DNA of 36,688 nucleotides from positions 1-36,688 of the IMG/VR virus record IMGVR_UViG_3300032237_000091. The stretch is one strand, 5' to 3'. The DNA is from a virus. Lineage: Duplodnaviria > Caudoviricetes. The stretch's first letter is position 1, and each line of letters opens with the position of its first letter. The notes under the pieces are model-generated. The model did not search any database. It had not been told where the DNA came from and saw only the letters and a program-made list of their open reading frames with translations. A program made the translations under genes and the position numbers. Shown piece after piece: positions 3,815 through 21,400 of this stretch.

Positions 3815-3839
3815 ACTTGGCGACATCGTGTCGCCAAGT
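3815..3839. repeat. 25-bp palindrome copy 3 (ACTTGGCGACA-TCG-TGTCGCCAAGT)
   Basis: Intergenic; perfect 11-bp arms. Confidence 0.95.
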
Positions 3840-4785: not shown

Positions 4786-5739
4786 ATGTTGACACAAATT
4801 GATAAGAGCAATATGTCTAATGCTAAGAGGTCTATAGAACTTGACCCCAAGTTAGGTGAGTACGTTGATGCAGTCGCAATGCTTAAGCCCTTATGCAACT
4901 TTGTTGCAGAAGATAATAACGTATCACAACATTGGGGGGACTTCATAAACGAAGAGGGTAAGAAAGATCGAAAGATATTTGAGTTTCTATCTTCTGTGCA
5001 AGTGTATGAAAATGGTGAACGTCTAGGCGATGTAGGTATAGCACACGTATATCGTAGAAACGAAGGTGGGCATGTGTTTGTTTACTTTGTAGATTCTTTT
5101 CGTATCTCTAAGGAAAGAGGTCAGCACAACAGGACCTTAAGCAAACACTTGAAGGTAGCATTACGGCATGTTAATAAAGCCTTTATACCTAGAGCAAACC
5201 AAGAACTAATCGAACAGATTAGTCAGCATGTTAGTTATAGACTTGGTCATGTTATGGGTAACAATCACAATCAAGCAAGGTGGTGTATAGACTGCGATAC
5301 CGAAGCGATGAACTATGCGTATTTAGCATACAAGGCTAGGTTGCGTGGCGAGACTACCGTAACGCTACCGACTGTGTTGGCTACTTCAAAAAAACGCAAT
5401 GACAATGACTTTGACAAATATATGGAAAGGTATGACGAAGCCAAGAAACTTACCGACCACTATAACAATATTGGTAGCAACGGCAACATAGGGTATGCAG
5501 TACAAGGCAAGTCAGATAAAAGTTTTGTTGTATGCAACTATGACAAGAACGACCCTAATACTTTATACAAATATAAATCATTAGATGATATGCCCAAACA
5601 TCTAGCCGATAAAATATCTGTTCTAAAGTTATTAGATATTGATGAGCCTGTTGGACACATTGGAGTTAAGTTACATTCTGATGGTGATATTAATCTTGAA
5701 TACTATTATTTAGTTTCGGGTGATATAATATTTGAGTAA
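4786..5739 (+). CDS. hypothetical protein (317 aa)
   Basis: AGGAGG SD and long ORF; no family recognised. Confidence 0.85.
   Translation: MLTQIDKSNMSNAKRSIELDPKLGEYVDAVAMLKPLCNFVAEDNNVSQHWGDFINEEGKKDRKIFEFLSSVQVYENGERLGDVGIAHVYRRNEGGHVFVYFVDSFRISKERGQHNRTLSKHLKVALRHVNKAFIPRANQELIEQISQHVSYRLGHVMGNNHNQARWCIDCDTEAMNYAYLAYKARLRGETTVTLPTVLATSKKRNDNDFDKYMERYDEAKKLTDHYNNIGSNGNIGYAVQGKSDKSFVVCNYDKNDPNTLYKYKSLDDMPKHLADKISVLKLLDIDEPVGHIGVKLHSDGDINLEYYYLVSGDIIFE
5721..5729 (+). promoter_or_regulatory. extended -10 sigma70 promoter (TGaTATAAT) for candidate sRNA1
   Basis: Perfect TGnTATAAT inside the last codons of ORF 4786; predicted start about G5736; no good -35. Confidence 0.6.
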
Positions 5740-5889
5740 CCCTTCTTGGTTACAGATACTAATGTAATGCCGTATACCTATATAGCATGATGTAGATATA
5801 TGGCGTCGGGAAACCGAGCATCTCCAATAACACAAGTAGGATGTGAATCTGCTTTAGCCTACACTAAGCCCTCTTCGGAGGGCTTTTTT
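5736..5889 (+). ncRNA. candidate structured antisense small RNA 1 (~154 nt)
   Basis: Flanked by a promoter and a terminator; several stems with G-U pairs; 5741-5752 is the exact reverse complement of three RBS leaders. Confidence 0.65.
5866..5889 (+). terminator. Rho-independent terminator
   Basis: AAGCCCTC-TTCG-GAGGGCTT followed by a T run. Confidence 0.92.
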
Positions 5890-5896
5890 ATTGGCT

Positions 5897-5921
5897 ACTT
5901 GGCGACATCATGTCGCTAAGT
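5897..5921. repeat. 25-bp palindrome copy 4 (ACTTGGCGACA-TCA-TGTCGCTAAGT)
   Basis: Lies between the terminator and the next promoter; not followed by the RBS leader. Confidence 0.95.
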
Positions 5922-5960: not shown

Positions 5961-5990
5961 TTGCAATTATGGTTTGCTTAAGACTATACT
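5961..5990 (+). promoter_or_regulatory. sigma70-type promoter of the replication block
   Basis: TTGCAA-N18-TATACT with an AT-rich UP-like tract at 5939-5956. Confidence 0.6.
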
Positions 5991-6028
5991 GTGTCAATAG
6001 ATTAAAAATAAATAGGAAAAGTTAAACC

Positions 6029-6349
6029 ATGTCTACACCTGAATATAAGGTCAAGGCTATTGTCACCGACATACTTGATGAACACGATGTATATTATTTC
6101 AAACCTGCAACGCATGGCTACGGTAGGTCAGGAGTTCCTGATGTAGTTGCGTGCTACAACGGCACGTTCATTGCGATTGAATGTAAGGCAGGCTCAAACA
6201 AACCAACTAAATTACAAGAGCGAGAGATAGCCCGCATCAAAGAAGCAGGGGGCATTGCACTCGTCATCAACGCTGACAACACGAGCGACTTAGTTAAACT
6301 AATCGCTCGACTTAGCACCAGTTCTTTGAAAGGAAACCAAGATGAATGA
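6029..6349 (+). CDS. VRR-NUC / Holliday-junction resolvase-like nuclease
   Basis: GVPD...FIAIECKA...PTKLQ PD-(D/E)XK signature. Confidence 0.88.
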   Translation: MSTPEYKVKAIVTDILDEHDVYYFKPATHGYGRSGVPDVVACYNGTFIAIECKAGSNKPTKLQEREIARIKEAGGIALVINADNTSDLVKLIARLSTSSLKGNQDE

Positions 6350-6623: not shown

Positions 6624-8449
6624 ACATAATCACATTAGATTTTGAAACGTATTACTCACAGGACTTTAGTCTTACTAAGATGACTACTGAAGAGTATGTT
6701 CGCAGTGATGATTTTCAAGTAATAGGCGTTGCTATTAAGGAGAATGATGGTGAAACTAAATGGTTTGATGGACAAAATAATAAATTGGGTGATGTGCTTG
6801 CTAGGTATAACTTTGCTGATTCTTTTGTCCTCGCTCACAATGCTATGTTTGACAGCGCTATATTATCTTGGCACTATGATATTAAACCCTTCGCATGGCT
6901 CGATACCTTGTCTATGGCAAGGGCAACTGATGGGTTAGAAGTTGGTAATAGTTTGGCTAAGTTGGCTGAACGCTATGGCCTAGGCGTAAAGGGTTCTGAA
7001 GTAATAGACGCTAAAGGTAAACGAATTGCTGACTTTACCGAAACGGAATTAAAACAGTATGGCGAATATTGTAAAAATGATGTTGAGATGACCTATAAAC
7101 TTTTTGACATTCTTGTTGACCGTTTTAGTAAATCTGAATTGCAATTAATCAGTTTAACTATCAAAATGTTTTCCGAGCCAGTTCTTCTCCTTGATAGCCT
7201 TTTGCTTGAACAACATCTTATGGAAGTTAAAGAACGCAAAGAAAAATTACTTGATGCTTGCATATCAGACAAAGATACATTGATGAGCAACCCAAAGTTT
7301 GCCGAATTGTTAATTAGTCTAGGCGTTGAGCCACCAATGAAAGAAAGCCCTGCCAATGGAAGACAAACATTTGCCTTTGCTAAAAACGATGAAGGTTTCA
7401 AAGCCCTCGCCGAACATCCCGACGAAAGAGTTCAAGCTCTTGTCTCGGCACGAATGGGAACTAAGTCAACGCTTGAAGAAACAAGAACTCAACGATTCAT
7501 TGATATCTCATTTCGAGGCAAAATGCCTGTCCCCTTGCGATATTACGCCGCACACACAGGAAGATGGGGAGGTGATGACAAACTTAATCTCCAAAATCTC
7601 CCAAGGAAATCACTCCTTAAATCGAGCATTATTGGACCTAATAAATTCATCCTTGTTGACGCCGACTCGTCCCAAATCGAAGCGAGGACGGTAGCGTGGC
7701 TTGCTGGTCAGAACGATCTCGTTTTAGCCTTTGAAAGGAAAGAAGATGTCTATAAGATTATGGCTAGCAGTATTTACAACAAAGCGGTCGAAGACATCAC
7801 GGACTCGGAAAGGTTCGTGGGCAAGACGACAATCCTCGGCGCAGGCTACGGCATGGGTGCAACAAAGTTTGCTATACAACTCAAAACTTTTGGCGTGGAA
7901 ATCGAGGAGCAGGAAGCGAAGAGAATTATCGACGTATACCGTGCAACCTATCCAAGAATCCCCGAACTGTGGAAGGAAGCAAATCGTTCCCTTGACGCTA
8001 TGGCACAAAAGAAAACTTGTGAAGTTGGGTGTCAACCCGAAGCACTTAGCCTTACGGCATCAGGTTTTCTACTCCCGAGCGGACTTTACCTCAATTACAA
8101 CGACCTTAGACGAGACGATGACGCATATAGTTATGGAAGTAGACGAGGGCGTGTGAAGATTTATGGCGGGAAGGTAGTGGAAAACTTATGTCAGGCTGTA
8201 GCACGATGCATTATTGGTGAGCAGATGTTGCGTATAGCCAAGCGTTACAAGGTAGCACTAACGGTTCACGATGCGGTCATGGCAGTTGTACCCGAAGAAG
8301 AACGTGATGAAGCTATTAAGTATATACATGATTGTATGAGTTGGCGTCCAAGCTGGGCTAAAACATTACCTCTTGCTTGTGAAATAGGTGCGGGTAAAAG
8401 CTATGCTGATTGCGGTAAGAAAATGTCAATAGAAAAATGGGGGTTGTGA
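6620..8449 (+). CDS. polA: family A DNA polymerase with 3'-5' exonuclease
   Basis: ExoI DFETY, ExoII HNAMFD, TGRW, NLQNLP, motif A DSSQIEAR, motif B RFVGKTTILGAGYG, motif C VHDA. Confidence 0.95.
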   Translation: MNIITLDFETYYSQDFSLTKMTTEEYVRSDDFQVIGVAIKENDGETKWFDGQNNKLGDVLARYNFADSFVLAHNAMFDSAILSWHYDIKPFAWLDTLSMARATDGLEVGNSLAKLAERYGLGVKGSEVIDAKGKRIADFTETELKQYGEYCKNDVEMTYKLFDILVDRFSKSELQLISLTIKMFSEPVLLLDSLLLEQHLMEVKERKEKLLDACISDKDTLMSNPKFAELLISLGVEPPMKESPANGRQTFAFAKNDEGFKALAEHPDERVQALVSARMGTKSTLEETRTQRFIDISFRGKMPVPLRYYAAHTGRWGGDDKLNLQNLPRKSLLKSSIIGPNKFILVDADSSQIEARTVAWLAGQNDLVLAFERKEDVYKIMASSIYNKAVEDITDSERFVGKTTILGAGYGMGATKFAIQLKTFGVEIEEQEAKRIIDVYRATYPRIPELWKEANRSLDAMAQKKTCEVGCQPEALSLTASGFLLPSGLYLNYNDLRRDDDAYSYGSRRGRVKIYGGKVVENLCQAVARCIIGEQMLRIAKRYKVALTVHDAVMAVVPEEERDEAIKYIHDCMSWRPSWAKTLPLACEIGAGKSYADCGKKMSIEKWGL

Positions 8450-12419: not shown

Positions 12420-13785
12420 TTATTCATGGCCTGGTGTTTATCCTCCTATGGTACACCAGAAAGACACGGCAGATTTTTTAGTCCGCAATAAACGTTCATT
12501 TTGTTTTAATGAGCAAGGTACAGGTAAAACTGCGTCAGCTATATGGGCGGCAGATTACTTATTAGAAAACAAAGCAATTAAGCGTGTTCTAATTGTATGC
12601 CCTTTATCTATCATGCAGTCAGCATGGCAAGCCGACTTGTTTAAGTTTGCAGTACACCGCAAAGTTGGTGTGGCGTATGGCGACAGAAATAAACGCAAAG
12701 CAATTATTAATAGTGATGCTGAGTTTGTCATTATTAATTATGACGGTGTTGAGATTGTTGCAGATGATATATCTAGAGGTAAGTTTGATTTAATAATTAT
12801 TGACGAAGCTAACGCATACAAAACAGTAACCACTAATCGTTGGAAGATTATGAATAAGTTAGTTACTCCGACTACAGGGTTATGGCTTATGACAGGGACG
12901 CCAGCCGCTCAATCTCCTACCGATGCCTACGGCTTAGCCAAACTATGCGTGCCCAATAGAGTGCCTAGATTCTTTGGTGCTTTTAGGGATAAGACAATGA
13001 CTAATATAAGTCAATTTAGATGGATACCTAAACCAAACGCTAACGAAGTTGTGTTTGATGCATTACAACCAGCTATTCGATATATTAAAAAAGATTGTTT
13101 AGATTTACCAGAGGTTACTCACGTATACCGTGATGCTCCACTTACTGCACAACAAGAAAAATACTACAAGCTTCTAAAGAAAGAAATGCTTATGGTAGCT
13201 GGCGGTGAAGAAATTAGTGCAGTTAACGCAGCGGTTAACCTTAATAAACTTTTGCAGATTAGTGGTGGCGCAGTTTATAGCGACAACGGCAGTGTGGTGG
13301 AGTTTGATGTATCTAACCGATTAAAAGTTATTGAAGAAGTAATTAATGAGTCGAGCAATAAAGTCCTTGTGTTCGTACCGTTTACGCATACAATAGAATT
13401 GCTTAGATCACATTTGAAAAAGGCGGGTATTAGTTGTGAAGTTATCAATGGTAGCGTAACGGTTAATAAACGCACTGAAATATTTAAAAGGTTTCAAGAA
13501 GCTAATGATATTAAAGTGCTTATCATACAGCCTCAAGCAGCGTCACACGGCGTCACATTAACTGCTGCGGATACAATCATATGGTACGCACCAGTTACCT
13601 CTATAGAAACTTATCTACAAGCTAATGCACGCATAGATAGACAAGGTCAGAAAAACAAAATGACTGTTGTGCATATTAAGGGTAGTCCCGTAGAGACAAG
13701 GATGTATGGTATGTTGCAAAATAAACTAGATGTGCATACAAAAATAATTGATTTATACAAAAAAGAAGTTGAAGAAAACACTTGA
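12409..13785 (+). CDS. SNF2-family (SF2) helicase
   Basis: QGTGKT, DEAN, MTGTP, HGVTLT, QANARIDRQGQ; start moved to ATG 12409. Confidence 0.92.
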   Translation: MLDDYSWPGVYPPMVHQKDTADFLVRNKRSFCFNEQGTGKTASAIWAADYLLENKAIKRVLIVCPLSIMQSAWQADLFKFAVHRKVGVAYGDRNKRKAIINSDAEFVIINYDGVEIVADDISRGKFDLIIIDEANAYKTVTTNRWKIMNKLVTPTTGLWLMTGTPAAQSPTDAYGLAKLCVPNRVPRFFGAFRDKTMTNISQFRWIPKPNANEVVFDALQPAIRYIKKDCLDLPEVTHVYRDAPLTAQQEKYYKLLKKEMLMVAGGEEISAVNAAVNLNKLLQISGGAVYSDNGSVVEFDVSNRLKVIEEVINESSNKVLVFVPFTHTIELLRSHLKKAGISCEVINGSVTVNKRTEIFKRFQEANDIKVLIIQPQAASHGVTLTAADTIIWYAPVTSIETYLQANARIDRQGQKNKMTVVHIKGSPVETRMYGMLQNKLDVHTKIIDLYKKEVEENT

Positions 13786-13809
13786 CAGTGTAAATAGTTG
13801 TGGTAAAGT
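13782..13809 (+). promoter_or_regulatory. sigma70-type promoter
   Basis: TTGACA-N16-TAAAGT with extended -10 TG. Confidence 0.55.
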
Positions 13810-13853
13810 AATTATTAACGAACAAAGATTCGTTTTTATTTGAAAGGAAAAGT

Positions 13854-14258
13854 ATGGAACCAAATGACGGCATCAACGTCGAGAAACTCGTCTCCGTCTT
13901 TATTAAGATTAGGGATGCACGAGAAGAAGCTAAGCGTGAATGGGAAGAGATTGATAGCGATTTTGCTACCAAGCTGGATCTTATTAACCAAGAGCTTTTA
14001 GACATATGTAAAGATACAGGAGCCGATAGCATTAAGACTAAATTCGGCACTGCTATTCGCACAATCAAATCCAAATATTGGACTAACGATTGGGAAAAGT
14101 TTCATGGTTGGTTGCTTGATAACAAGATACCTGAAGTTTTAGAAAAGCGTATCCATCAAACAAACATGAAACAATTTCTAGAAGAAAATCCGGACTTGTT
14201 GCCCCCCGGACTAAACGTGGACAACGCATATCACATAACTGTAAGGAGAAGTAAATGA
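13854..14258 (+). CDS. conserved phage replication-module protein (134 aa)
   Basis: Coiled-coil N-terminus; SIKTKFGT, DW..F and PPGL motifs. Confidence 0.8.
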   Translation: MEPNDGINVEKLVSVFIKIRDAREEAKREWEEIDSDFATKLDLINQELLDICKDTGADSIKTKFGTAIRTIKSKYWTNDWEKFHGWLLDNKIPEVLEKRIHQTNMKQFLEENPDLLPPGLNVDNAYHITVRRSK

Positions 14259-15359: not shown

Positions 15360-15371
15360 TTTAAAGGAAAT

Positions 15372-18191
15372 ATGGCAACGACAGACTTACTCAAGGCAGT
15401 GCTGCCTCCTGAAGGGGAAGGTGTCTACTGCATAATCGGTTTAAAAGATGGAATTTATCCTAAGCAATTTTTTGTTGATACATTAACAGAAGTTGAAAAG
15501 CTTATAGATGATTTACTAGCCGATTCAAGGAATGTCTATTTTGGTTGCGCCAAATATATAAACGATACAGACGGAAGAACTCAAAAGAATAGCAATTTTT
15601 TTAGATCCTTTTGGATTGATATTGATTGCGGTTTAGGAAAACCATATGCTACACAAGCTGATGGGTTAGATGCACTTAAAACATTTTGTAACGACATTCA
15701 TTTACCTTTGCCTACCATCGTTAATAGCGGGCGAGGTATACATGCTTATTGGCGTTTATCTAGCACAATTGATCGTGTAAATTGGAAGCCTGTAGCCGAG
15801 CGTATTAAGAGCTTATGTGTAGAGCATGAGTTTAATGCAGACCCATCAAGGACTGCGGATAGTGCTTCTATTTTAAGAGTACCTGAAACTTGGAATCATA
15901 AGGAAGACCAGCCTTTACCTGTAGATTTATTGGCGTTAAGCAAAGAAATAGATTATGAAGATTTAAAACAAATACTTGGCATACTAGTTGCACCTGACTA
16001 TATACCGAGACAATTAAACGAAGTTACTCGTGCATTACTAGGTAATAGGCAAAGTAGGTTTAAAACTATAATGCTCAAGACCATGAACGGCAATGGATGT
16101 AAGCAGTTAGAAAACATTGTACTTGACCAAGAAACTATAGAGGAGCCACTATGGAGGGCAGGATTATCAATCGCCGCACATTGTGTAGACGCAGATGACG
16201 CTATACATAAAATATCATCAAAGCATCCGGAGTACGATCCGACCGAAACCGAAAAGAAAGCCTATTCAACAAAAGGTCCGTACACCTGTCAGACATTTGA
16301 AAAACTTAACCCAAAAGGTTGTGCGGAGTGCGCCCACAAAAATAACATTACATCACCCATACAACTTGGTTCTGAAATTGCTAGTTCGGAAGAAAATCAA
16401 ATCGTTGTTGAGACGGAGGATAATAGGGCGGAAACTTTCGAAGTTCCACAGTATCCATTTCCGTATTTTAGGGGCAAGAACGGAGGCGTCTATATAAGGA
16501 CTGAAGATGAAGATGGTAATCAAGATGCAGCAAATATTTATGAGCATGACTTGTATGTAGTTAAAAGATTATATGACCCTGTAAAAGGCGATACGGTATG
16601 GATAAGATTGCATTTACCTAGAGACGGTATGCGTGAATTTGCTATGCCACAAACTGATGCATTAACATACGAAAAGTTACGGGATAAATTAGCTTGGTAT
16701 GGTGTAGCCGCACCTAAACATCAAATGGCAAATATTATGCAGTACGTTATTACGTTTATTAAAGAAAGTCAACATAGAGATAAGGTAGAAATTATGAGAA
16801 CACAATTTGGTTGGACAGAAGAAAACGATAAATTTATTTTAGGGGAGCAAGAAATCTCCGCTACAGGAACAAGCTATAGCCCACCGTCAACATCAACAGG
16901 TAGCCTAGCAGAATGGTTAAAGCCTACAGGTGACTTCGAGATATGGAAGAAGACCGCAAAGACTTATGATAGACCGGGATTTGAGCCACACGCATTTGGG
17001 TTTTTTACTGCATTCGGTGCGCCACTAATTAAACACCTTAACTTAAAAGGCGCAATTATAAATCTAATCAATAACGAGTCTGGTACAGGTAAGTCAACAA
17101 TATTAAAGATGTGCAATAGTGTATGGGGGCATCCTGAAGAAGTAATGATGCAGTGGAAAGATACGCAGAACACTATCATTCATAGGCTTGGTATCTTAAA
17201 CAATTTACCTGCAACTATTGACGAAGTTACTAAGCTTACACCCGAAGACTTTTCAGATCTTGTATATAGTATCTCGCAAGGTCGTGGTAAAAACCGAATG
17301 AAGCAACATGAAAACGCCGAACGAGTTAACTTTACCAAATGGGCGCTTATAGCTTTATGCAGTTCTAATGCATCATTCTACGATAAGCTATCTAGTCTTA
17401 AGTCTACGCCTGATGGTGAGTTTATGCGGTTGATTGAGTATCGTATTGATAGAACAAATAACTTAACTAAACAAGAAGCAGACGAAATATTTGATACATT
17501 ATACAGCAATTACGGTCATGCTGGGGAAGCTTACGCTAAGTATTTAGTATCTGATTTAGAGTCAGCAATAGATTTAGTTAAACAGATACAACAACGAATT
17601 GATGCTGATGTAGGGTTTACTAGCCGTGAAAGGTTTTGGTCAGGTGTGGTTGCTTGCAACATAGCCGGTGCTTTGATTGCTAAAGATTTAGGCATCATTG
17701 ATTTTAATATTAAGCGAGTATACGATTGGATTTTAGCCGAGCTTAAAGTGATGCGTACTGAAGTTAAAGCGCCAACGCAATCACAGACTAGTGTTATTGG
17801 TGAGTTTATGAATGAGCATCGTGCAGCTACTTTAGTTATTAATGGGGCGGCAGATGCTAGATCAGGTATGGAACAATTGCCTATAGTAGAGCCTAAGTTT
17901 AATGATTTGTACATTAGGATTGAGCCGGATACAAAACGAATGTTTATAAACGCAAAACAACTTAGAACATACTGTACTAAACAACAGATAACTTTAAAAG
18001 AAACATTAAAGAACCTAGCTTTAGAAGGAGTGTACTTGGGTAATGTTAAAAAGCGTATCACAAAAGGTACAAAGATTGTATCGCCTCCAGTAGACGTGCA
18101 TGTATTTGTGTTGGATGCGCCTAATTTTATTGATGCAGAAACTTATATAGAAGCGGCTAAAGCGGATACAAATGCTGATATACGGGATTGA
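15372..18191 (+). CDS. primase-helicase fusion (RepB/AEP-like primase, Cys cluster, DUF927-type helicase)
   Basis: WIDID, SGRGIHAYW, LRVP; PYTC...CAEC; SGTGKST, TIDE. Confidence 0.9.
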   Translation: MATTDLLKAVLPPEGEGVYCIIGLKDGIYPKQFFVDTLTEVEKLIDDLLADSRNVYFGCAKYINDTDGRTQKNSNFFRSFWIDIDCGLGKPYATQADGLDALKTFCNDIHLPLPTIVNSGRGIHAYWRLSSTIDRVNWKPVAERIKSLCVEHEFNADPSRTADSASILRVPETWNHKEDQPLPVDLLALSKEIDYEDLKQILGILVAPDYIPRQLNEVTRALLGNRQSRFKTIMLKTMNGNGCKQLENIVLDQETIEEPLWRAGLSIAAHCVDADDAIHKISSKHPEYDPTETEKKAYSTKGPYTCQTFEKLNPKGCAECAHKNNITSPIQLGSEIASSEENQIVVETEDNRAETFEVPQYPFPYFRGKNGGVYIRTEDEDGNQDAANIYEHDLYVVKRLYDPVKGDTVWIRLHLPRDGMREFAMPQTDALTYEKLRDKLAWYGVAAPKHQMANIMQYVITFIKESQHRDKVEIMRTQFGWTEENDKFILGEQEISATGTSYSPPSTSTGSLAEWLKPTGDFEIWKKTAKTYDRPGFEPHAFGFFTAFGAPLIKHLNLKGAIINLINNESGTGKSTILKMCNSVWGHPEEVMMQWKDTQNTIIHRLGILNNLPATIDEVTKLTPEDFSDLVYSISQGRGKNRMKQHENAERVNFTKWALIALCSSNASFYDKLSSLKSTPDGEFMRLIEYRIDRTNNLTKQEADEIFDTLYSNYGHAGEAYAKYLVSDLESAIDLVKQIQQRIDADVGFTSRERFWSGVVACNIAGALIAKDLGIIDFNIKRVYDWILAELKVMRTEVKAPTQSQTSVIGEFMNEHRAATLVINGAADARSGMEQLPIVEPKFNDLYIRIEPDTKRMFINAKQLRTYCTKQQITLKETLKNLALEGVYLGNVKKRITKGTKIVSPPVDVHVFVLDAPNFIDAETYIEAAKADTNADIRD

Positions 18192-18369
18192 TTTCAATAT
18201 TAATTGGAGTAAGTTTATTGTTGGGGCTTCGTTCTTTATACCGTGCTTAGACTCTGACATGGCTTTAAAACAGATCAAAAGAGCAACAAGACGGCTTAAA
18301 TTTCGTATAAAAACGCAAGTTGTAATAGAAAGAGGCATCCAAGGCTTGCGTGTTTGGAGAATTAAGTAG
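18172..18369 (+). CDS. small basic hypothetical protein
   Basis: W..F.VG.SFFIP...GLRVWR pattern; possibly DNA-binding. Confidence 0.75.
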   Translation: MLIYGIDFNINWSKFIVGASFFIPCLDSDMALKQIKRATRRLKFRIKTQVVIERGIQGLRVWRIK

Positions 18370-18375
18370 TATGAT
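18346..18375 (+). promoter_or_regulatory. sigma70-type promoter for candidate sRNA2
   Basis: TTGCGT-N18-TATGAT; predicted start about G18382; no plus-strand gene follows. Confidence 0.55.
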
Positions 18376-18381
18376 GTAGGT

Positions 18382-18444
18382 GTAACTTCATGGTTACTTT
18401 TCCTTTCGTGAGAACTTTATACCCCACTACGGTGGGGTTTTTTT
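18382..18444 (+). ncRNA. candidate antisense small RNA 2 (~63 nt)
   Basis: Promoter, 5' hairpin, tract CATGGTTACTTTTCCTTTC complementary to several phage RBS/start regions, then a terminator. Confidence 0.6.
18421..18444 (+). terminator. Rho-independent terminator at the junction of the two arms
   Basis: ACCCCAC-TACG-GTGGGGT followed by a T run. Confidence 0.9.
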
Positions 18445-21400
18445 ATTCGTCGCCGTAAGCTGCCATACCGCCAAGTTCACCAATCAGTTTCTTTTGAATG
18501 TTCATGCCGCCAGTAATCTGTGCAAGTGATCGTTGTCTGTATCGGTTAAGAACAGAACGAGATAAATTACTTCCTGTTATGCTTGCCCCTGGATTTGAGC
18601 TATTAAACTTAATAATTTTTTCTATTGTTCTTTCTCTTAAATCATCATCACTATTATCTATGCTCATAAAGAATGCGTTTAAGAGCGCTTGACGTTTTGT
18701 TAAAATTTCTTGTTCCGCAGTTTTCATTTCAATATTGGCTTTTTGTCTTTGCGCTAACCGTTCGGATGAGAAACCAAGCGCTTGGGCAGCAACTTCACCT
18801 ACACCAAAATCGTCAATAAGCACATCACCTTTTAGCGTAGTAGCTTTACCTTCACCAAAAGTTTCCGAGAACCTACCCGCCTTGAGAATATCTTTTAATA
18901 TAGCAGGAGACATTGTTTCCATTGCACGTTCAAGATGCCCTTCACGCATTTGCTTCATAGCGTCGGTAGCACTAACCATTAAACCTACGGATGGACCCAT
19001 TAAACCTATTAACATATTTTGTAGCGCATCAGTCTCATCTTTGCTTGCACGTGGGTCACGGAACCATAAATCGTTAAGCCCCATACGGTCGGCTAAGTTA
19101 ACTCCTGATACTTGAGACATAATGCCTCGTGAGATAGAATCGCCCCAGAAACCACCGAAGTTATCCGACAACCAATTCTTGTACCAATTATTAAAGTCAA
19201 ATGGTTTTTCATCATCGGCATCATCGCAGAATACAGCTTCTAATGCTTCGGCTAATTTACTTAATGCCCACCATCCAGGTAAACCCGTAGTGCCAGCAAA
19301 AGCAAATGTCATGCCTAGTGTGCCATATAAACGGTCACGGCCTTCTCTACGCAATTCATCATAGTATTTTTTAAGTTGTGCTTCTAAAGCAGCTCCTTGA
19401 TATTCCGGCTCACCGTTATCTCTTTGGATAGCATTGATCTGTTGGCGAACCTCTTCCAATTCAGGCAACTGCTGATTTGGTCCTAACTGTTTTTCTTTTG
19501 CAATTAAAACATCATAGTTGTACATCTTTGAAAAACCTTCTAGACCACTACGACCAATTAAATATGACATTTGCTGCGAGAACTGTTTAAATTGCAACGC
19601 TACTTTAGCCCATTTACCTTGAAAGAATCTAGGCTTGTTAAGCGTAGAGTAGTCGAACATAGACTTGTAAGTTAGATCTTTGGTAACTTCAACCGCTTTT
19701 TTAAACAGCTTATCACCTTTATACCCACCATTTTCCGGCTTAGCATATTTCTCCATAGCCATATCAAACGCAGACATGGCAACTACTTCACGGTTAAACT
19801 TTTCTGCGCCGTGAAAAAGGCCGCTTAATACGCCCATAACTTTTTGACTTCTGCCTGTGTATAGGTTAGAAGAAGATTCAGCTAAGCCGACAATGTCATG
19901 GCTAAGTGTAATGTCAAATAATCCATCAGCAGTAAATCGTTCAATTGCTTTTTTCTGCACATCAGTTAAATTGGGGTCTCTAGCTATAGAAGGAAACGCC
20001 CAAGTTTCATTGCCGTTTTCGTCTTTAGCTTTAAAACCACTCTTACCAACTCGTTTAGCGTAACCTATCATAGTCTTTGCGGTTTGCGCTTGACCAAACC
20101 TAGTTGCTAAAACAGGCTGACCGACTGCAACTACCCCTAACATATTAACAAGCGCAGAAGCTGGTGCAGTCATATACCAAATAAAGGATACGTTAGAAAG
20201 GAACGAAGGCAACTTTCCGGTATCGGGCGGGTTCATAATAAAGTCTACCCGTTTAGATAATTCATTAATATAATCCCGCAATTTCTTTTCTTCAGCTGGG
20301 TTGCCCATGCCAGTTAAATAATCTTCAGATTGTTTAACTGAAGTAAATAACTTAGGTCCAAATGTAAAACGTGAATGTTGATACGCCATATGAAATGCGG
20401 ATGAACTAAACGCACGAAGCATATCTTGATCCATACCTGCTGTATTTTTACGTGGTAAAAACATTTTGCGTACGTTTTGATCAGGCAACTGCAATAAATA
20501 TAAATTTTCTAAGGCTTCTTCTAAATTGCCTTTTAATGTTTTAACGTCATCGCCTTTACCTGTTCGAACAAGGTCTTTTAATTCCTTTAAAAATTCTAAA
20601 TCTTTTATACTGCTTTTCCATTTAGCATCACGCAAACTATTACCCATATCTATTTCTACATCTTTACCGATTTCTTCTTTACGTTTCTTAGCGAACGCAT
20701 TACGCTCTAACGCAGATTCAAACTGATAAAATTCTTTAGCTTGTCCTTTACTTTTGTTTACCACTAACCAATAATCACCAAAACGTTTTAATGGAAAGTA
20801 TGGTTCTAAAGTATGGCGTTTGAAGTACTCGTCTATTTTTTTATAACTAGGATGCGCTTTAATTTCTTCTTCGGTAATATTTTGTTTTTCGGGTGTAATA
20901 AGTTCAGCTTTAATAACTTCACTAACCCTAGCTAAAAGCGATTCTTTATATGCGGCAAGTCTATCAGCATAAAAATCTTTAACTTTGTTGTATATGTTTT
21001 GCCCATCTACACCAATATCTTTATACGATTTATCTAAAGCTCTACGTTTATTTTTATCGTTATCACTTAATGCATTAAAAGCATCTAAGCTGCCCATACC
21101 ATAATAGTTAGTTGCAGTAAATTTACTAGGGTCTATAGTTTCTACAGTAGCATCAATCATTAAAAGATTAAGTGTTTTAGCTAATTCCGGATGTTTTTCT
21201 TGAAATTTTTGCCACGGTTTAATAACTTTTTTAGTTTCAGTTAATACAGAATTTCTTGCATCAAGCATGTTTTCTACGTTTTGAATAAATTCGGTAAATG
21301 GCGGTAATCTTCTGCCGACCATATCGTCTAACTGACGTAATGTAAATGCACCCAAGTAATGTTTGCGTAAAGAGTCGTCTAAACTTTCTAACCAAAAAGG

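Follow-up and report, generated by a model that had tools for sequence, protein, structure and literature searches.

The phage RNA C4 acts in trans on the phage's own mRNA via short, imperfect pairing, and it represents a processed cloverleaf RNA controlling an antirepressor in the immunity region of a temperate phage. Other antisense RNAs of phages, namely sar, OOP, aQ and PAK_P4, overlap their targets. C4 is known from the phages P1 and P7 and corresponds to the Rfam family RF01695 (PMC2864571), while sar of P22, OOP and aQ of lambda, and PAK_P4 are treated in a 2025 review as antisense RNAs that mostly serve lysis-lysogeny control (PMC12197685). According to the same review, most phage sRNAs with a described function target host genes or the lysis-lysogeny switch in temperate phages. 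Moreover, the PLE satellite encodes SviR, a trans-acting sRNA that lowers the translation of lytic-phage genes, also regulates the PLE and is conserved across PLEs (10.1101/2022.04.08.487710). In Vibrio cholerae, OppZ and CarZ have been experimentally shown to be autoregulatory 3'-end sRNAs, which are cut by RNase E and bound by Hfq (PMC7398697). A full-text literature search on phage sRNAs, judged at the level of its listings, returned no paper on the RNA family reported here. Its structure may be included unnamed in the viral RNA catalogue from 2023, which was built on IMG/VR intergenic regions (PMC10690425).

The present study deals with a plus-strand tract, named sRNA2, on a linear virus record of 36.7 kb with an estimated completeness of 58%; the entire record was analyzed and is called the window. 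Judged from sequence comparisons, the tract is a real, conserved element, and we consider it rather likely that it encodes a trans-acting, self-targeting phage sRNA that represses translation at two start regions. The plus strand carries an early block including an AAA ATPase and a VWA-like protein, and a replication block. The latter encodes an Hjc/VRR-NUC-like nuclease, a family A polymerase, a PD-(D/E)XK exonuclease and an SNF2 helicase, followed by a 134-aa and a 283-aa protein, an HTH protein, the primase-helicase and a 65-aa protein. Virion and lysis genes are situated on the minus strand, and the sRNA2 tract is found in a gap of 73 bases, in which the plus and minus arms converge. A palindrome of 25 bp precedes three early genes and the nuclease promoter (1038-1062, 2199-2223, 3815-3839 and 5897-5921); relatives have different palindromes in the same places, and it probably represents an operator. 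The term replication genes is used here for the operons and not for the main target, because the 134-aa protein (model pLDDT 83, no match by fold or by sequence) is without assigned function, and the 283-aa protein (model pLDDT 61) gave exclusively sub-threshold hits, several of them to single-strand-binding OB folds, which is at best a lead towards a single-strand-binding protein.

The phage group is distant from cultured phages, the closest primase of which shares 31% identity, and a DNA search against them gave nothing beyond chance matches of 29 nt. The search of a prokaryote collection found two contigs with 26-27% identity and revealed neither a host nor a prophage. Tyrosine integrases and serine recombinases (PF00589, PF07508) were found in none of five near-complete relatives. 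Hence, the gene content suggests an apparently lytic group, while the absence of these two families would still be compatible with a plasmid-like lysogeny.

The predicted RNA of 63 nt (18382-18444, plus strand) has a fold z-score of -3.80 on this strand, and the same build is found in 91 distinct sequences with a median length of 70 nt. It begins with a 5' hairpin (18382-18397), whose loop and 3' arm hold the anti-AUG part of the seed in the window genome. The complete seed, consisting of the anti-AUG and anti-Shine-Dalgarno (SD) tract, covers positions 18389-18407 and is defined by exact matches and co-variation. An intrinsic terminator-like hairpin with U run follows at 18421-18444, the hairpin of which (18421-18438) was called on the plus strand only; it would also end the replication-block mRNA. 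A stem of 5 bp at the predicted RNA start occurs in 79 of the 91 sequences, compared to a mean of 27 and a maximum of 40 among shuffles, and the stem positions 2 to 5 show five to six pair types each, i.e. compensatory changes. These stems were scored sequence by sequence and without a covariance model, because the plain MAFFT alignment failed to bring the variable 5' hairpin into register. Over 51 representatives the average unpaired probability of the anti-SD core was 0.86, hence this part is largely accessible. The sequence-only reading had regarded the tract as a minimal RNA composed of seed and terminator, which is correct for both parts but not for the minimal size, since the conserved 5' hairpin precedes them. 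Its claim that a promoter and a terminator flank the tract with no plus-strand ORF between them holds for the terminator and, by conservation, for the promoter, but not for the ORF, because an ORF of 22 codons without upstream SD spans the terminator. Taken together, sRNA2 shows features of the trans-acting sRNA class, namely an own transcription unit with promoter and intrinsic terminator, as given by prediction and conservation, and a seed that is exposed and whose complementarity to a remote translation start is conserved. In Rfam no family scored above its gathering threshold, the best overlap being TarB with 23.8 bits at a threshold of 80, and the C4 model RF01695 gave no hit at E<=1 in the window and none at E<=10 in the 3.2-kb locus.

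The predicted promoter is interwoven with the 65-aa gene (18172-18369), the last gene of the replication block. The -35 box (18346-18351) is placed within its final codons and the -10 box (18370-18375) immediately 3' of its TAG stop, separated by a spacer of 18 nt. In the window, this promoter matches 8 of 12 consensus positions and scored below the threshold of the promoter scan; hence, its assignment rests on conservation. All 62 distinct copies of the 65-aa gene use TTG for the Leu that underlies the -35 box, whereas TTG makes up 17% of the Leu codons in primase genes, and the following Arg is always encoded by CGN. The stop codon is likewise TAG in 62 of 62 copies, compared to 5 of 69 primase stops. 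Relatedness explains part of the fixed TTG, because another conserved Leu of the same gene is also encoded by TTG in 46 of 62 copies. Furthermore, the -10 hexamer reads TAnnnT in 92 of 92 loci with six variants, and 50 of 53 distinct sequences have a purine 7 positions downstream of it. These features bear on the question of how the RNA is made. The tract between the last gene and the shared terminator becomes operon 3' UTR whenever the operon is read, and the promoter in the window is modest, so that the same pairing could be exerted by an RNA derived solely from the long replication mRNA, the 3' end of which would serve either after RNase E-type cleavage or as intact tail, without a separate promoter. 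Such an exclusive origin appears unlikely, because the fixed TTG and TAG, the TAnnnT hexamer and the purine 7 bases on, at which the hairpin starts, are signatures of a promoter. These conserved signatures point to sRNA2 as a primary transcript, and both routes may coexist.

The conservation of sRNA2 was evaluated in 148 loci obtained by two protein searches. Among those with a detected 65-aa gene, the element is present in 92 loci (window included), 3 loci are truncated, and 7 distant ones, the primases of which are about 40% identical where measured, have neither the element nor the gap. In these distant loci (L136, L138, L140, L144-L146 and L148) the 65-aa gene is kept without gap, sRNA2 and fixed TTG, which indicates that the RNA has been gained or lost within the group. 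A second scan by the promoter pattern alone yielded 116 further loci, many of them on the same contigs as before. Three of them are cut off, and the build was found in all 113 untruncated ones, 108 by a script asking for the anti-SD core and the terminator, and 5, which failed the core pattern, by eye. In three more distant loci (L189, L206 and L175) the stretch matching the start of the 134-aa gene is located in or near the 5' hairpin loop and not after it.

The complementarity within the window, on which the sequence-only reading had built its proposal, was confirmed. Positions 18395-18407 are the exact 13-nt complement of 13842-13854, and neither strand of the window contains a longer exact match. 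Positions 18389-18404 pair with 6014-6031 as 9 plus 7 bp with a bulge of 2 nt, i.e. over 16 bp. The first site belongs to the main predicted target, the SD and start codon (13842-13856, plus strand) of the 134-aa gene (13854-14258; Pam3 gp33-like), and the second one comprises SD and start (6014-6031, plus strand) of the nuclease gene (6029-6349), situated upstream of the family A polymerase. Both assignments are supported by pairing and co-variation. As had been proposed, they are the first genes after promoter-like sites (13782-13809 and 5961-5990, respectively), which are conserved among relatives. Both genes overlap the next gene, by 4 and 8 nt. A small hairpin (13817-13835) at the predicted 5' end of the mRNA for the 134-aa protein, the stem of which changes on both sides among relatives, is perhaps a 5' stabiliser. 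In the duplex model, which takes no account of target accessibility or chaperones, the start at 13854 reached -23.7 kcal/mol, the best value of 37 start regions (one of them mis-set) and of 7311 sliding windows, while the nuclease start at 6029 reached -19.3 kcal/mol and rank 5 of 37. The observed pairing also surpassed composition-matched controls, the check suggested together with the original proposal. Among 1000 free shuffles none paired as well with 13854 and two did so with 6029; when the anti-SD core was kept, the numbers were 1 and 0 of 1000. Any two starts were paired as well by 9 of 1000 free and 29 of 1000 core-keeping shuffles. The shorter matches at 6328-6336 (9 nt) and 15363-15370 (8 nt, primase) do exist, and two matches had not been listed, one of 10 nt at the early-gene start 2240-2249 and one of 9 nt within the polymerase ORF (7733-7741). 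The unlisted ones demonstrate that chance alone produces matches of 8-9 nt, hence the two short ones mean little by themselves.

The main support for the two targets comes from co-variation, since for the two best targets of the initial reading the complementarity is kept through sequence change among relatives, which that reading had named as a check. For the 134-aa gene the duplex energy averaged -16.6 kcal/mol within the same genome versus -12.3 kcal/mol across genomes (30 seed clusters), and for the nuclease gene -17.9 versus -11.4 kcal/mol (13 seed clusters); in both cases the advantage of the own genome was at the floor of 20,000 permutations (p<1e-4). Six of the other eight genes, i.e. 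the 93-aa, helicase, polymerase, exonuclease, HTH and 65-aa genes, gave no such signal. When branch-disjoint pairs from a FastTree primase tree were compared, the 134-aa gene was better in 14, worse in 2 and tied in 1 of 17 pairs (p=0.002; L123 with its miscalled start omitted), the nuclease gene was better in 5 of 6 pairs (p=0.11), and the other eight genes showed no excess. The result for the 134-aa gene was repeated among the later loci, with -17.6 versus -12.6 kcal/mol in 12 seed clusters (p<1e-4), some of which are kin of earlier lineages. Exact runs of at least 9 nt were found in 46% of own pairs versus 10% of foreign pairs. In a gene-by-gene scan of the window and 13 records (two in part), done with a simple ORF caller that missed genes across stretch borders, the 134-aa gene was within the top four start regions in 12 of 14 records, and the nuclease gene ranked first in 5 and within the top five in 7 of 12 records. 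Both kept their top ranks when the comparison was restricted to SD-bearing genes (Fisher p 9e-7 and 8e-5).

Some records deviate from this pattern. The 134-aa gene drops to rank 22 of 62 in G008, where an early gene pairs best, and to rank 11 of 87 in G005; in G019 another gene and the 283-aa gene pair best. In G014 (L306) and L076 the nuclease start codon follows the -10 box by 7 bases, thus this mRNA looks leaderless, and the pairing with sRNA2 is lost there (rank 59 of 60; -5.5 kcal/mol). Regarding the targets that had been derived from the short matches, the start at 6342 was rejected (p=0.99; 2 of 7 branch-disjoint pairs), and the primase start is a weakly supported candidate, with p=0.011 in the first set and p=0.006 in the gene-by-gene records, 10 of 17 branch-disjoint pairs and p=0.26 in the later loci. 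The 283-aa gene is perhaps a target in some lineages; it reached p=0.005 in the first set and p=0.001 in the later loci, with 7 better and 7 worse of 16 branch-disjoint pairs and p=0.62 in the gene-by-gene records.

A companion element, sRNA1 (5736-5890, plus strand), was detected at the end of the early block. It is longer than sRNA2, has no match in Rfam, and shows a conserved build of a 5' hairpin with anti-SD tract, a structured middle and a terminator; in the middle part, both partners of an apparent loop-loop pairing are altered in L085 and L119. Co-variation of the 5' part of sRNA1 was seen with the start regions of two early genes, 1089 and 3871 (9 records, p=0.0002 for each). The two elements display a double dissociation, because sRNA1 does not co-vary with the starts of the 134-aa and nuclease genes, whereas sRNA2 co-varies with these but not with genes 1089 and 3871. 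In the same 24 tests sRNA2 gave also p=0.006 for the primase and p=0.03 for gene 4786. sRNA1 seems to be absent or much shorter in G006, G007, G008 and G019; among the start regions paired by sRNA2, an early gene takes rank 3 in G007 and rank 1 in G008.

Another aspect concerns the working strand. The gap between own and foreign pairs is nearly as large on the opposite strands. The minus strand could be the active one, if late read-through transcripts carried a copy of the start-region motif that titrates a translational repressor protein or neutralises the plus-strand RNA; then the conserved property would be identity and not pairing. The eight bases before the terminator stem hold at most 4 A in 91 of 91 sequences, hence the minus strand lacks a U tail and late transcripts may run through the locus, yielding RNA complementary to sRNA2 and to the primase gene. 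On the minus strand, the 2605-aa late gene ends with a stop codon that overlaps the U run (18421-18445), and no minus-strand terminator is predicted there. Counts of G-U versus A-C also favour neither strand, with 33 versus 32 and 4 versus 9 in the pairing, and 27 versus 11 (background 1207 versus 786) and 5 versus 7 inside the alignments. Since these counts are even or mixed, the strand assignment is based on the promoter, the terminator and the 5' stem. Promoter boxes and terminator face the plus strand, which folds better than the minus strand in 69 of 91 sequences; the U run on the plus strand was a selection criterion for these sequences and is no independent evidence. The 5' stems contain G-U pairs whose minus-strand counterparts do not pair, and a protein would need a new binding sequence in every lineage. 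Collectively, these points make a working minus strand quite improbable.

Similarly small is the probability that sRNA2 is a real sRNA with mRNAs of the host or of other phages as main targets, the match to its own genes being secondary. Many messages could indeed be bound by an anti-SD core, and distant lineages differ in their best partner, but the co-variation singles out two start regions of the phage itself and is distinct from the one seen with sRNA1. Finally, the tract might provide a tiny minus-strand ORF of 9 codons with its SD and start codon, as the minus strand of the window does show an SD followed by ATG, or it might be a chance anti-SD match in an ordinary terminator spacer; this is highly implausible, because SD and ATG occur in just 30 of 91 sequences with unrelated peptides of often 2 residues, core-keeping shuffles rarely pair as well, and chance gives no genome-specific co-variation.

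Returning to a plus-strand sRNA acting on the phage's own start regions, the following mechanism might be assumed. The host sigma-70 polymerase would start at 18382 and produce the RNA of about 63 nt from the promoter of sRNA2. Pairing would begin between the single-stranded U/C tract of this RNA and the SD sequence of the target mRNA; in the case of the nuclease mRNA it could proceed across the AUG, for which the 3' arm of the 5' hairpin would be opened. The pairing would block loading of the 30S subunit. The target start regions are unstructured (fold z-scores of 0.51 and 0.88), hence there is nothing an activator would have to open, which favours blocking over activation. Because both targets lead predicted transcripts and overlap the next gene, repression may pass on to downstream genes by translational coupling; this step is uncertain, since the downstream genes also have their own SDs. 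The lack of integrase in all five near-complete relatives suggests a role in lytic growth, most simply as a delayed brake: a stable sRNA2, made together with its targets and rising with genome copy number, would slow down the synthesis of replication proteins with delay.

If this interpretation is true, sRNA2 would be an RNA acting in trans with which a phage of apparently lytic lifestyle restrains its own replication genes, and the natural compensatory changes across dozens of lineages support such a self-limiting RNA. The exact seed-target pairs are suitable for ordinary reporter assays without the native host, for which a natural set of matched and mismatched RNA-target pairs is available. 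Moreover, sRNA1 and sRNA2 suggest that in some phages the shut-off of middle genes could be achieved via RNA instead of a protein regulator. A rather doubtful extension would be that lytic phages time their gene programme by two self-targeting sRNAs that silence the lead genes of their own block, with sRNA1 closing the early and sRNA2 the replication block, and that rapid joint rewriting of seeds and targets leads to RNA specificity groups. In such a case, a resident phage would shut off the replication genes of close kin, but not those of diverged relatives.

Compared with the described systems, sRNA2 resembles OppZ and CarZ as an RNA at the 3' end of an operon, which shares the terminator and is predicted to pair with the mRNA of its own operon, so that inhibited translation would result in negative feedback (PMC7398697). 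Its complementarity to the own mRNA is in accordance with this type of regulation, and the U tail together with the AU-rich linker would be compatible with Hfq dependence. Unlike OppZ and CarZ, sRNA2 has its own predicted promoter within the codons of the last gene, is situated in a phage, is predicted to act on two transcripts with target sites 4.5 and 12.4 kb upstream, and carries a seed that changes from lineage to lineage. With C4 it has in common that it is predicted to act in trans on the phage's own mRNA via short, imperfect pairing, however, it has two hairpins, its predicted targets are replication-block genes, and no integrase was found in the five near-complete relatives. Like sar, OOP, aQ and PAK_P4, it is predicted to be a phage RNA lowering phage-gene expression through base pairing, but it is located kilobases away from its targets and pairs over 10-20 nt. 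Finally, sRNA2 shares with SviR the predicted function as a trans-acting sRNA of a mobile element that lowers the translation of lytic-phage genes, whereas SviR is directed from a satellite against its helper phage and sRNA2 would be directed by the phage, with a variable seed, against itself.
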